64,000 nt of DNA from a virus (taxonomy: Duplodnaviria > Caudoviricetes): IMG/VR virus record IMGVR_UViG_3300028591_000158, positions 1 to 64,000 of that record; one strand, 5' to 3'. Shown piece by piece: positions 3,980-57,997 of the stretch. A model generated the notes under the pieces. The model was not told the origin of the DNA, did not search any database, and saw nothing but the letters and a program-made list of their open reading frames with translations. The position numbers were made by a program, and so were the translations under genes. The number at the start of each line of letters is the position of its first letter. Position 1 is the first letter of the stretch.

Positions 3980-7714
<3,735 letters not shown>

Positions 7715-51867: not shown

Positions 51868-53619
51868 ATGCAAAGTCTTTTCGGAGATGAATTTAATATT
51901 GATTTTAATAAACCAAAAGCTAAAGAATTAGCTAGTAAAGCAAGAGTAACAGCTGGCTCTGAAGAATACGACCCAATGAAAATTCTTAAAAGTAAAAAAG
52001 TTTCATTGGAAGACCAACTCTTAGTAATTAAAGAACAAGTCATTAGGGTCTTAGGAAAACAACGTAAAAATATTGTTGTTATCAGAAGTCTTAATGACTT
52101 TTCTGACTATATAACAGCTTGTATAGAGTCTGGCTATATTTCAGTAGATACTGAAACTAATAACTCACTTGATCCAGTTACTTGTAAACTAATGGGTCTC
52201 TGTCTATATTATCCTGGTGGTAAGCAAGCCTATATTCCAGTAAATCATAAAGATCCAAAAACAAAAGAAAAGTTATCAAATCAAATAACTGAAAAACAAA
52301 TAAAAGAGCAATTACAAAGAGTAAAAGATGCAAAAACATTTGTAGTAATGCATAATGCTAAGTTTGATTTTAGTGTTATAAAGTGTACTTGTAATATTGA
52401 ATTATTAGCAGATTGGGATACTTCTATTGCAGCTGCTTTAATTGATGAGAATGAAGAAAAAGGATTAAAAAAGCAATATATATTACATATTGATCCTTCA
52501 CAACAAAAGTATAGTATTGAAGGATTATTTGCTCATATTCCTTATGCTTATGTTGATCCAGAAATATTTGCATTATATGCTGCAACAGACTCATTAATGA
52601 CTTTTAGATTATTTAAAGAATATCAAGAACCTATTTTATTAGCTGAGGATAATAAGAAAGTTAAATGGGTATTTGATAATATTGAAATGCCATTAGTTGA
52701 AGTTACAGCTAAAATGGAATTAAAAGGTGTATGTGTTGATCAAGCATTAGGAAAAAGACTTGAAGATAAATATAATGCTAAACTTGCAATTGTGGATAAA
52801 AATATTGCAGAAGAGCTAGATAAATTACAAGATAGAATAGTTAAGTGGAAGTTAACTAAAGATGCCAATGACGTTACTAAGAGATATGTACCTAAGAAAT
52901 CAAAATTATCAAAAGAAGCTTTAGAGAAAAGATATCCATTAGTTGATAATGATGGTAAGCGTTATGCAGTTGGAAAGTCTAAGGCATCACAATTAACTGA
53001 CCCAATTAATCTAGCTTCACCAGTACAAATGGCTATCTTATTTTACGATATTTTAAAAGCTCCTATAGTTAATAAAAAATCACCTAGAGGAACAGGTGAA
53101 GAAGAAATTAAGGCAATTGATGAAAAAATGAATATTCCATTATGCAAGCTATTATTAAAACGTAGAGGATTAGTTAAAATTTTAACTACTTATATCACAA
53201 CAATACCAACTCTTGTTGAACATTGGCCTGATAAAAGAATTAGATTCCATCTTGATCAAACAGGTACTGCGACAGGCAGATATTCATCTGGAGGAAAATT
53301 AAAGTTTATGGACGAGACTACAGATGAACCAATAGAAGTGTCGGGTATTAATATTCAAAATATTCCTTCACACGAAAAAAGTATAAGACAATTATTCATT
53401 GCTGACTGTAAATATGATACTGTTGAAGCTGAAAATAATGAAATTTCAATTCCAGAATATACAGAAATTGAAACTGTAAATGGATATAAATATCCAATAG
53501 ACTTAACTGATGCTGATATCATTGTTGGCGAAGATACAAATACAAATTATAAAATAAATAAAATATTATTAGATAACAAAATATATTATATAAATTTAAC
53601 TCCGTTTAACTCTAATTAA
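51868..53619 (+). CDS. polA: Family A DNA polymerase, N-terminal piece (3'-5' exonuclease, thumb) with a 70-aa non-polymerase tail
   Basis: DTET, HNAKFD, YAATD, TGTATGRYSS, NIQNIP..IRQLFIAD; then unrelated tail from 53407. Confidence 0.88.
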   Translation: MQSLFGDEFNIDFNKPKAKELASKARVTAGSEEYDPMKILKSKKVSLEDQLLVIKEQVIRVLGKQRKNIVVIRSLNDFSDYITACIESGYISVDTETNNSLDPVTCKLMGLCLYYPGGKQAYIPVNHKDPKTKEKLSNQITEKQIKEQLQRVKDAKTFVVMHNAKFDFSVIKCTCNIELLADWDTSIAAALIDENEEKGLKKQYILHIDPSQQKYSIEGLFAHIPYAYVDPEIFALYAATDSLMTFRLFKEYQEPILLAEDNKKVKWVFDNIEMPLVEVTAKMELKGVCVDQALGKRLEDKYNAKLAIVDKNIAEELDKLQDRIVKWKLTKDANDVTKRYVPKKSKLSKEALEKRYPLVDNDGKRYAVGKSKASQLTDPINLASPVQMAILFYDILKAPIVNKKSPRGTGEEEIKAIDEKMNIPLCKLLLKRRGLVKILTTYITTIPTLVEHWPDKRIRFHLDQTGTATGRYSSGGKLKFMDETTDEPIEVSGINIQNIPSHEKSIRQLFIADCKYDTVEAENNEISIPEYTEIETVNGYKYPIDLTDADIIVGEDTNTNYKINKILLDNKIYYINLTPFNSN

Positions 53620-53714
53620 CTCTAATTAATAGCCTAATTAGCTTATAACTAGTTGATAATTAACTGTATAATATAAAAAGTCTATATGACAAGAAAGGAC
53701 GGTGGTGCCACGCT

Positions 53715-54899
53715 ATGAGCAAAATAAAAACTAGAACAAGATATAAAATTGTTGGTTCAGATTATTCTGCTCAGGAATAGCCTGAGCCACGATTAGCCGC
53801 ATATATGTCTCAAGATCCAGAAATGAAAAAAGTTTATTTTGAAGGTAAAGATTTATATGCTAGAATTGCTCAGTCAGCATTTAACAATGATTATGCTGAT
53901 AATCTAGAATTTTATCCAGAAGGAACTGAGCTTGAAATTGATGGTAAAAAAGTAATAGCTGGTAAAAAAACTCATAAAAATCCTGAGGGAAAAAGTCGAC
54001 GTTCTGTTGGAAAAACATTACTTTTAGCAGCAAATTATGGCATGGGACCTAAGACTGCTGGTGAAAAAATGGGTAAATCTGCTAAAGAAGGTGGTGAACT
54101 ACTAGAGAGCTTTTTCAAAGGCTTTCCAGTTTTAAAACAAACTATTGAAGAATCAAAAGTATTCTTAAAAAAGAATGGCTATGTTGAAGATGCATTTGGT
54201 AGACGTAGGCATATTCCAGAAATCAATGAAAAGCCGTATGATGCAAGGTATGCTGATGAGAAAAAAGTTGAAGAATTAACTTTTAATCCATTTTTAAATT
54301 GTAATAATAGAACTTTTACAGATGATAAATTAAATAAATATATTACACTTGCAAAAAACACTAGAAATAATGAAGACTTTGATAAATTAGCTAGAGAGGC
54401 TGATCGAGATGGAATTATATTAACAGCTAACACTGGTAGAATAGCCCAAGCTGAAAGACAATGTTTTAATGCAAGAATTCAGGGTTCAGCAGCTTCACTT
54501 ACTAAGCTAGCAATGGTTAATATATTTAATGATGCATTATTAAAAGAATATAAAGCTGACTTAATTATTTCAGTACATGATGAAGTATTAGTTGAGTGCC
54601 CAGATTATTATGCTGACAAAGTTGAAGAACGTTTGCCAAAAATTATGATTGATACAGCTAAGCCATATATTGATATTCCGATGAGTTGTGACCCTTATAA
54701 TGTTACCCGTTGGTATAGTGATGAAATGGCTGCACAGCTAAGAGAAGAACTAGATAAAATGGAAAAAGGTGATCCAGATAAAAATATACCACCAATTGCA
54801 CATGATATTGCAGTTCAAAATATTTATAAAGATCATTGTGAAATTCCAAAAGAAGCTATAGACAAATGTTTAGCAAGTAATGATGATTTAGAGTTTTAA
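53715..54899 (+). CDS. polA: Family A DNA polymerase, C-terminal piece (motifs A, B, C), interrupted by in-frame TAG at 53778-53780
   Basis: Own promoter motif (53664) and GGTGG RBS; MSKIKTRTRYKIVGSDYSAQE*PEPRLAAYMSQD; KTLLLAANYG; SVHDE. Confidence 0.82.
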
Positions 54900-57075: not shown

Positions 57076-57193
57076 GGAGATACTAGATGGCAAGTATTTT
57101 AGAAATTGCTAAAAGACTTGGTATTCTAATTAATAGATATCGCAAAAAAGTTTAATAAACATTGACTAAATTAAATATAAGTAGGAGATGATT

Positions 57194-57997
57194 ATGAAAC
57201 AATATTGCGTATATATCCACAAAAATAAAATAAATAATAAGATCTATGTTGGAATAACTTGTCAAAAACCAATATATAGATGAAAAAATGGTAGTGGTTA
57301 CCCAAAAAGCACACAGCCAAAAATGTATAATGCTATTAAGAAATATGGTTGAGATAACTTCGAGCATATTATAGTAGCAGAATCATTAACTTATGAAGAA
57401 GCTAATAAGCTTGAACAAGAGTTAATACTTAAATATGATTCATTTGTAAATGGCTATAATATGTCATTAGGCGGTGATGGAAATAAAGGACATATTGTTT
57501 CTGAAGAGTTACGTCAACAAATGAAATCTACTCACCGTGTGCCACATCCAGGCGCACAAGGAAAAACATTTTCAGAAGAGCATAAAAAGCATTTAAGTGA
57601 AGCAAGACGTGGTAAAAAATTTGGGCCAAGATCAGCTGAAACAAAAGATAAAATAAGTAAAGCTTTATCTGGAAAAATAGTTTCTAATGAGACTCGTCAA
57701 AAAATAAGTCAAGCAAGCAAAGGACGCCAATCATGAAATAAAGGATTAACTGGCATTCCAGGCCATTTACAATCCGCAGAAACAAGAAGAAAAATTGCAG
57801 AACAAAATGGTTATGCTGTTGGAGCTTATAATTTAGAAACAGATACATTACAGTTAACATTTGTTTCAATTACAAGTGCAATAAACTATTTAAGAAAAGA
57901 AACTCAATATAAAACTGCTAATAGAAATACACTTGTTAATTGTATTAAATTAAAAAAGCTATATTGTGGATTTATATGAAAAATAATTAAAAATTAA
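57194..57997 (+). mobile_element. Free-standing GIY-YIG homing endonuclease with NUMOD3 repeats, 267 aa, four TGA
   Basis: CVYIHKNKINNKIYVGIT, R(W)KNGSGY, KYG(W)DNF, GYNMSLGG, SEEHKKHLS/SAETKDKIS/SNETRQKIS repeats, YCGFI(W)K. Confidence 0.9.

Follow-up and report, generated by a model that had tools for sequence, protein, structure and literature searches.

How does a phage obtain a working DNA polymerase from a gene in which a stop codon interrupts the catalytic core? This question is raised by a window of 64,000 nt (positions 1 to 64,000 of the IMG/VR record IMGVR_UViG_3300028591_000158), which belongs to an 85-kb viral contig that is estimated to be ~38% complete. Family A is the sole polymerase family found in this record, and its gene carries an in-frame TAG between the codons for two residues of motif A. 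A first inspection of the letters alone (the sequence-only reading) had proposed that ribosomes hop over the stop, from one Glu codon to another, thereby restoring the motif, and that this limits or regulates polymerase output. Here, we describe the locus and its relatives, weigh the hop against other ways of expressing or losing the gene, and relate the interruption to the mobile genes that accompany it.

A split polymerase gene with a stop codon in motif A

The locus consists of the following parts, given with the basis on which each was assigned:

51868-53619, plus strand: N-terminal half of a split family-A DNA polymerase (ORF and translation)
53620-53714, plus strand: spacer of 95 nt between the halves (sequence and ORF list)
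53715-53777, plus strand: leader of the C-terminal half, 21 codons, MSKIKTRTRYKIVGSDYSAQE (start ATG 53715 behind a strong Shine-Dalgarno sequence)
53775-53777, plus strand: proposed take-off codon GAA, the Glu codon of motif A (last match to the family motif before the stop)
53778-53783, plus strand: proposed coding gap TAGCCT (in-frame stop TAG at 53778-53780, then CCT at 53781-53783)
53784-53786, plus strand: proposed landing codon GAG, synonymous with GAA (triplet that directly precedes the codon at which the motif resumes)
53787-54899, plus strand: resumed frame of the C-terminal half, PRLAAYMSQDP... to the stop, with the remaining polymerase motifs

The N-terminal half contains the 3′-5′ exonuclease and the start of the polymerase domain, and has a beta-rich tail of ~70 aa; Pfam places DNA_pol_A_exo1 and positions 19-152 of DNA_pol_A on it. 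The resumed frame of the C-terminal half matches DNA_pol_A as well (1.3e-39). Because the domains of the N-terminal half and of the post-TAG frame are complementary, the polymerase is split in two genes ~13 codons before motif A, and the interrupting stop lies inside motif A of the second gene. Such a split form is common, as a search of 5.8 billion proteins returned 950 relatives of similar length. The spacer ends at its 3′ side with a Shine-Dalgarno-like AAAGGACGGTGGTG (53694-53707). The leader behind it contains the catalytic Asp codon of motif A (GAT 53760-53762) and is conserved in hundreds of homologues, including the related locus L003, where it has 3 synonymous and 3 non-synonymous changes.

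By blastn against deposited phage genomes, the polymerase region gave a single weak match of 265 nt and no annotated relative. An Rfam scan of the whole window found 0 families, and thus no intron or known recoding RNA. That the tail of the N-terminal half may be an intein relic finds no support: it shows no intein signature, Pfam gives just insignificant SH3-like matches, and the tail is also present in most of the unsplit relatives inspected. The 8-mer AATAGCCT occurs twice in the window, once in the insert described below and once in the spacer at 53628; the spacer copy is not conserved in L003, so the repeat is probably a coincidence.

Read in frame with ATG 53715, the window has the codons GAT (53760), TAT, TCT, GCT, CAG, GAA, TAG, CCT, GAG, CCA and CGA. 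The series D-Y-S-A-Q-E-TAG-P-E-P-R at 53760-53792 is therefore exactly as the sequence-only reading gave it. The motif expected there, DYSAQEPR, is likewise borne out by hundreds of homologues: ~100 of the 120 homologues listed begin M..KTRTRYK[IL]VGSD[YF]SAQEPR, and deleting 9 nt from the window restores GSDYSAQEPR. The distance between the GSD and KDLY anchors is 81 nt in normal genes versus 90 nt in the window, which, together with the DYSAQEPR of the family, means that the window has an insert of 9 nt. Some database proteins, a minority, begin just past motif A or in odd frames ('MSQDPEM', 'MTEPR', 'MDQTIPLRNSEPR', 'MSGQTILRSGQELR'). These odd starts were the first hint that interruptions at motif A are recurrent.

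Inserts of many lengths at one site

Related loci were fetched with an alignment query, resulting in 79 viral-contig and 80 metagenome loci, and a few more contigs were added by exact protein look-up. The alignment query was needed, since a single-protein query of viral contigs gave 1 distant locus. These loci gave 75 distinct contexts of motif A, of which 37 have an insert of 4, 5, 6, 7, 8, 9, 10, 11 or 12 nt and the other 38 are normal. Four codons of D-Y-S-A-Q-E-P-R, those for Ser, Ala, Glu and Pro, can precede the insert. An in-frame stop (TAG, TAA or TGA) leads the insert in 35 of the 37, coming right behind the last correct codon. The remaining two start with CGG, which is used for 0 of the 65 Arg codons of its locus, or with TCG, which is used for 1 of the 128 Ser codons of its locus.

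The codons that flank the inserts follow a pattern too. Take-off and landing triplets have the same first two bases in 20 of 24 insert types, where chance would give ~1 in 16. Written as take-off, gap and landing, the matched types include GAA-TAGCCT-GAG, GAA-TGACT-GAG, GAA-T-GAA, TCT-TAG-TCT, TCT-TAAG-TCC, GCC-TA-GCT and CCG-TAAGGTTG-CCT. The pair in the window, GAA and GAG, consists of synonymous Glu codons. Three of the four unmatched types (TCC to GCT, TCC to ACT and CCG to TCG) keep the middle base and have a wobble-compatible third base, while the +4 insert of L135 (GAG CGGG CCT) is the fourth, to which no convincing take-off/landing pair can be assigned.

Inserts of the window's own type come in several sizes. 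Besides the TAGCCT gap, identical in the window, L003 and L008, relatives have TAGC (+7; GAA TAGC GAA CCA CGA in L165), TAGCT (+8; GAA TAGCT GAT CCT CGA in L049, whose protein is nearly identical to that of L008) and TAGCCCT (+10; GAA TAGCCCT GAA CCA CGA in L110 and L111). The downstream genes are intact in L165, L049, L110 and L111. Ratios of dN/dS are 0.045 for L110 versus L111, 0.045 for L008 versus L049, and 0.03 for L121 versus L122, which both have +5 inserts. Homologous inserts of 7, 8 and 10 nt in front of intact, selected genes argue that the gap is not translated. To judge by these ratios, protein is made from the downstream frame in lineages in which frame-breaking inserts have long been present. 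With the 9 nt of the window taken out, two ORF parts that are split by non-coding nucleotides jointly encode one contiguous, conserved protein, which is the pattern by which bypassing is recognized.

Can the stop be read through?

Among the alternatives to a hop, read-through survives best. Here, UAG would be decoded by a suppressor or near-cognate tRNA, placing three extra residues (X-P-E) in motif A. For the window allele alone this is formally possible, as its insert is a multiple of three. A public gene caller took TAG as Gln in the +12 class ('DYSQRKSAQEPR' proteins; contig L090 of this class has TAG there), the phage already reassigns another stop codon, and a suppressor tRNA could sit in the missing part of a record that is ~38% complete.

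The reassigned codon is TGA. Of the 33 pairs of long ORFs that share a frame in the 85-kb record, 25 are interrupted by TGA, which this phage evidently uses as a sense codon. TGA also stands in a GIY-YIG gene (57188-57997) where relatives have Trp or another aromatic residue, and this alignment suggests that the encoded residue is Trp; a PDB sequence search for the residue's identity gave no match. The gene lies outside the polymerase locus and is 21-29% identical to the endonucleases that are encoded between polymerase halves in relatives (see below). TAG is used differently. As the sequence-only reading had stated, it is a normal stop elsewhere: each TAG between two long same-frame ORFs is followed by a ribosome-binding site and a start. 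It terminates ~20 ORFs in the record, a usage unlike that of a reassigned codon. Scans for tRNA genes found 0 in the window and in the whole 85-kb record, and thus no suppressor there.

What decides the matter are the relatives. Inserts of 4, 5, 7, 8, 10 and 11 nt, among them the homologous 7-, 8- and 10-nt forms, are impossible to read through and yet stand in genes under strong purifying selection. Moreover, extra residues at this site occur in 0 of the 38 insert-free motif-A contexts. Since window-type inserts are 7, 8, 9 and 10 nt long, read-through is ruled out for that insert family, and we leave it a slim chance as the reading of the window allele.

Restarting translation or trimming the RNA

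Ribosomes could also terminate at the TAG and re-initiate downstream, which would leave the polymerase in three pieces, with the 21-residue leader and its Asp either acting non-covalently or being dispensable. Starts for this are present in some alleles: the GAA TGACT GAG class has an ATG that overlaps the stop (A-ATG-A), where gene callers begin 'MTEPR...', and the window has an ATG at 53805. However, a restart at 53805 would leave out Pro-Arg of motif A along with the five residues that follow, and in most insert types no start codon comes after the stop and ahead of the next conserved residue. Nor would re-initiation explain why the landing triplet is matched almost universally. We also know of no precedent for a free peptide of 21 residues that supplies a metal-binding Asp, and consider re-initiation very unlikely.

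An even more improbable route is removal of the extra bases at the RNA level, by editing or a tiny splicing event before translation. The inserts often lie in predicted hairpins, as might suit such an event. Removal would, however, need neither the leading stop or rare codon (35 + 2 of 37) nor a synonymous landing triplet, no Rfam family matches the window, and to our knowledge no mechanism takes 4-12 nt out of bacterial or phage mRNA.

Conservation and selection at the insert

The insert of the window recurs in other assemblies. L003, which comes from a different JGI sample and has 86% protein identity, also reads GAA TAG CCT GAG, flanked on either side by synonymous changes. The same series is found in L008, from a clade with 55% identity. 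Over the 370 downstream codons, the window and L003 differ with a dS of 0.70 and a dN/dS of 0.13. Despite this dS, they show no difference over the 36 nt that run from GGT through the insert to CCA. The ribosome-binding site and the frame of the leader ORF are conserved as well. Conservation of the insert and of its take-off and landing codons, to which the sequence-only reading had looked for support, is thus found in both relatives, and matched triplets are widespread beyond them.

That reading had also listed a dead allele or an assembly artefact among its alternatives, to be recognized by close relatives that lack the insert and by decay downstream; L003 has the insert, and selection downstream is purifying. 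Although the stop does fall in an essential motif, the notion that the polymerase is decaying, or that the 9 nt are absent from real phage DNA, has next to no probability, given an identical insert in independent assemblies of other samples (L003 and L008), a dN/dS of 0.13 downstream, a conserved leader ORF with its ribosome-binding site and frame, and the fact that this gene is the only polymerase found in the record.

A proposed hop from GAA to GAG

Against these alternatives, we consider it highly likely that the 9 nt constitute a short programmed translational bypass, or 'stop-hop', from GAA to GAG over UAG-CCU. Ribosomes would start at ATG 53715, translate 21 codons up to GAA 53775 and meet UAG in the A site. 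Termination there would be slow, so that in a fraction of ribosomes peptidyl-tRNA-Glu would unpair from GAA while the mRNA slides by 9 nt. The tRNA-Glu would then re-pair with GAG 53784 and decoding would restart at CCA, giving a product with a canonical motif A (GSDYSAQEPRLAAY) and, with it, an active C-terminal polymerase half. This is the mechanistic core of the sequence-only reading, in which a GAA to GAG hop over TAG-CCT restores DYSAQEPR. It is supported by the conserved insert, by the homologues with 7-, 8- and 10-nt inserts and by selection downstream; from these we infer the hop itself, its efficiency and the tRNA that would be involved. As the amino acids of motif A cannot change, only hoppable inserts would be viable.

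The nucleotide context of the stops is consistent with slow termination. The base that follows is C in the window and, by tally, rarely T across insert types. In E. coli, C after the stop is a weak termination context, which suggests that termination may be weak at these stops too.

The site can also fold, in two competing ways:

53769-53787, plus strand: short hairpin with a 7-bp stem GCUCAGG/CCUGAGC and loop AAUAG (-11.8 kcal/mol, z = -3.8)
53754-53788, plus strand: alternative longer hairpin of 7 + 7 bp (-15.4 kcal/mol, z = -3.8)

The short hairpin, with stem arms at 53769-53775 and 53781-53787, had been noticed in the sequence-only reading. It is real in the sense that 0 of 200 shuffles fold as well, but it is neither unique, as the longer hairpin is the minimum-energy fold of 53754-53788, nor shared across insert types. 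The longer hairpin pairs GGUUCAG with CUGAGCC and UUAUUCU with GGAAUAG, so that the insert pairs with the G-S-D-Y-S codons. The G-to-T change in the landing triplet of L049 results in a perfect outer stem of the longer hairpin, GGAUCAG/CUGAUCC, which amounts to one compensatory change, and no RNA structure common to the insert types was found. Hairpins may help the hop, but for want of a fold common to all types, we do not treat structure as its defining signal.

Split genes, homing endonucleases and mobility of the insert

Why would a stop-led insert be found in the most conserved part of a polymerase? A first indication is the kind of gene in which inserts occur. They are present in 0 of 16 unsplit genes versus 37 of 59 split genes (Fisher p = 4e-6, with shared ancestry ignored). 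A second is the gene that may lie between the halves. By Pfam and motif scan, nine insert loci (L004, L009, L028, L041, L070, L105, L135, L164 and L166) have a GIY-YIG endonuclease gene there, versus 0 of the 15 split loci that are free of inserts and have sufficient sequence upstream (p = 0.018, again with shared ancestry ignored). Five of these endonucleases were aligned and belong to one GIY-YIG family with a common C-terminal region.

The window's spacer was compared with those of relatives by aligning the conserved AAGGAGGTGATGCC element. Where relatives have the GIY-YIG gene, the 95-nt spacer of the window has no endonuclease gene; given this length, the window would best be regarded as a cassette member that has lost its endonuclease.

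Split and insert move together by recombination, as can be seen in a pair of relatives. L034 is unsplit and insert-free, while L138 is split and has a +5 insert (GCC-TC-GCA); the two are essentially identical over 8 kb outside one patch. This patch is a mosaic of ~270 nt with 38-86% identity; it covers the split junction and reaches as far as the insert, beyond which lies a tail of scattered differences. It looks like a gene-conversion tract from a diverged donor. In a quick tree, different inserts are found on near-identical polymerases (L008/L049/L095, L121/L122 and L013/L108) and the same insert is also found in distant clades, which indicates that inserts are gained, lost and exchanged quickly.

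We propose that the mobile unit is a cassette, which would combine the split in the gene with a GIY-YIG homing endonuclease and with a short insert placed in motif A, the likely target of that enzyme. Cassettes of this kind would invade this polymerase family, and the lineage of the window would have lost the endonuclease gene. The insert would disrupt the stretch of motif A that the cassette's GIY-YIG enzyme recognizes or cleaves, and so would probably give immunity to cleavage. This protective role is suggested by the clustering of the inserts within 12 nt of motif A and by analogy to MobA of phage T4.

Alongside the GAA to GAG hop, we read the insert as probably the remnant of a homing-endonuclease cassette, in analogy to T4 mobA/gene 60, and not as a means of regulation. 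The evidence points to a selfish-element scar that is tolerated by translation. The suggestion that the bypass limits or regulates polymerase output finds no support: inserts occur solely in split genes, are linked to GIY-YIG genes and lie in a recombination patch. A low efficiency of hopping would nevertheless lower polymerase output as a side effect.

The site in the window and its variants probably belong to one large, so far undescribed family of very short hops in nature, in which the gap measures 1-9 nt and follows a stop or a codon that is very rare. This family would have been generated and spread by a GIY-YIG cassette that targets motif A, with the insert immunizing its carrier. On this family reading, selection keeps only hoppable inserts, and ordinary bacterial-type ribosomes would therefore hop efficiently enough to supply an essential enzyme.

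Relation to known recoding systems

The closest parallel is the MobA system of T4 gene 60, in which a gene is split, an endonuclease is encoded between its halves, and the bypassed insert comes after the first few tens of codons of the downstream half (PMC5009743; bioRxiv 10.1101/2022.08.31.505936). The T4 insert gives protection from the endonuclease, which has been lost in some members of the group (bioRxiv 10.1101/2022.08.31.505936). Take-off occurs at a codon with UAG behind it (in some homologues, a rare codon instead), and landing takes place on a matched or synonymous codon (PMC5009743; bioRxiv 10.1101/2022.08.31.505936). Manning and Atkins found cassettes of the gene 60 type solely in topoisomerase genes (bioRxiv 10.1101/2022.08.31.505936).

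The polymerase loci share much of this arrangement: an essential replication gene that is split, with a homing endonuclease between the halves (MobA, or GIY-YIG in some clades), an insert some tens of codons past the start of the downstream half, a stop or rare codon after take-off, and matched or synonymous codons. They also share members that lack the endonuclease and keep both split and insert, and spread by gene conversion. The differences are as clear. The gap is 6 nt here (1-9 nt across the family) versus ~50 nt in gene 60, and it interrupts catalytic motif A of a family-A DNA polymerase instead of a topoisomerase. The nascent chain would be ~21 residues long at take-off, in contrast to the longer signal peptide of gene 60. 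The polymerase inserts are highly variable and sit at four adjacent codons, and neither a long structured gap nor a conserved internal Shine-Dalgarno sequence was identified at the site. The resemblance to the gene 60 cassette is therefore treated as that of an analogue, not as membership.

Shorter hops are known from engineered genes. Matched codons that flank a stop allow hops in E. coli constructs, at low efficiency (PMC5009743). The TCT TAG TCT alleles (L024 and L116) have the same geometry as these constructs, while GAA TAG CCT GAG of the window has 3 more nt; the shared idea is that the P-site tRNA re-pairs downstream with the stop in the A site. Unlike the constructs, the sites described here are natural, conserved and located in an essential gene. 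The review by Atkins et al. 2016 states that no natural in-frame stop-hop was known (PMC5009743).

Many short inserts in essential genes that are corrected in translation are also a feature of the byps of the Magnusiomyces capitatus mitochondrial genome, which occupy 81 positions over many genes and for which two-out-of-three pairing is accepted (PMC5009743). As in the polymerase loci, codon matching is not always perfect. Byps are 27-55 nt long and are not known to be linked to homing endonucleases. In contrast to byps, the polymerase inserts are found in phages with bacterial-type translation and cluster at one hot spot of 12 nt.

Replication genes that are broken into two ORFs with a free-standing homing endonuclease between them have been described as 'fractured genes' (Dassa et al. 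2009, PMC2677866). Those genes are rejoined by split inteins, whereas here the tail of the N-terminal half has no intein signature and a stop-led insert lies downstream.

A full-text literature search turned up no account of hops or of short stop-led inserts in the polymerase genes of phages, and no natural short stop-hop. Bypassing so far rests mainly on T4 gene 60 with its topoisomerase homologues and on one yeast mitochondrial genome. The polymerase locus adds dozens of natural variants at one site that vary in the length of the gap, the stop codon, the match at the landing triplet and the local structure, providing a ready-made mutational series for what ribosomes require in hopping. The variants matter for annotation as well, as gene callers truncate these polymerases or take the TAG as Gln. 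They also bear on the question of how the best-conserved codons of an essential gene can be invaded by a homing endonuclease while that gene stays functional.

A final comparison is with +1 frameshifting in prfB, where ribosomes shift by one base onto an overlapping codon in an autoregulatory manner. In both cases, a stop that is slow to be decoded in the A site would promote forward re-pairing of the P-site tRNA. The window differs in that it would need a move of 9 nt onto a non-overlapping codon, and nothing suggests autoregulation. A separate site in the same record, beyond the window, may be closer to prfB: the topoisomerase IA gene reads GTG GAG TCT CCC TAA C where VESP-NKVKT is expected, and its CCC TAA C is a candidate for a one-base, stop-led shift of the prfB kind.

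TGA as a sense codon

Across the window and the full record, TGA behaves as a sense codon (examples in the window are at positions 5663, 12301, 15244, 34227, 56716 and 57734). Where long, same-frame open reading frames (ORFs) are parted by a single stop, that stop is TGA in 25 of the 33 pairs, and reading TGA as sense lengthens the summed ORFs by 35%, versus 4% for TAG. A pointer to the residue encoded by TGA comes from a free-standing gene in the window:

57188-57997, + strand, gene for a GIY-YIG homing endonuclease of 269 aa, containing four TGA codons

This gene is flanked by a 178-aa ORF on one side and a RecA-like gene on the other, and its product shares only 21-29% identity with the endonucleases inside the split-polymerase cassettes of relatives. 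Its TGA positions correspond to tryptophan or other aromatic residues in relatives, so this alignment makes code 4 (TGA = Trp) likely for the phage. In-frame TGA codons are also present in cassette GIY-YIG genes at two relatives' polymerase loci:

L166, 1670-2446, GIY-YIG gene with in-frame TGA
L164, 571-1386, GIY-YIG gene with in-frame TGA

Sense reading of TGA therefore appears to extend to other phages with the same polymerase family.

A candidate frameshift site in the topoisomerase IA gene

About 8 kb past the window end, the same phage carries a second stop-led candidate recoding site in a replication gene:

72028-72090 of the full record (G000:C1), extra-base site in the topoisomerase IA gene

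The sequence reads CTT GTG GAG TCT CCC TAA C AAG GTA, where the expected peptide is LVESPNKVKT; the CCC-TAA arises from one extra base and is a candidate for a prfB-like +1 shift.

Other features of the polymerase locus

The N-terminal polymerase half ends in a tail for which Pfam gave no significant match:

53404-53619, + strand, beta-rich tail of ~70 aa

As this tail is also found in most unsplit relatives inspected and is missing from one, L032 (which has MLFKAKDGYKIIGSDYS there), it is an optional insertion domain shortly upstream of motif A, and might derive from a Hint/intein element.

Further arrangements seen in relatives:

L135, 3455-3500, 4-nt insert (GAG CGGG CCT) adjoining a GIY-YIG gene
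L035, 1914-3501, second interruption of the C-terminal half (example)

At the L135 locus, the take-off codon is directly followed by the unused codon CGG rather than by a stop, and no clearly matched landing triplet was found. In L035-L039, a stretch of roughly 1.1 kb breaks up the C-terminal half once more, about 143 codons in. The gene thus seems to have been invaded at a second site, by an intron, an intein or an endonuclease.

Finally, the 8-mer AATAGCCT has only two copies in the 64 kb, one in the spacer that separates the two halves of the polymerase (53628-53635) and the other constituting the insert (53776-53783). The spacer copy is not kept in the relative L003, and the double occurrence is probably a coincidence.
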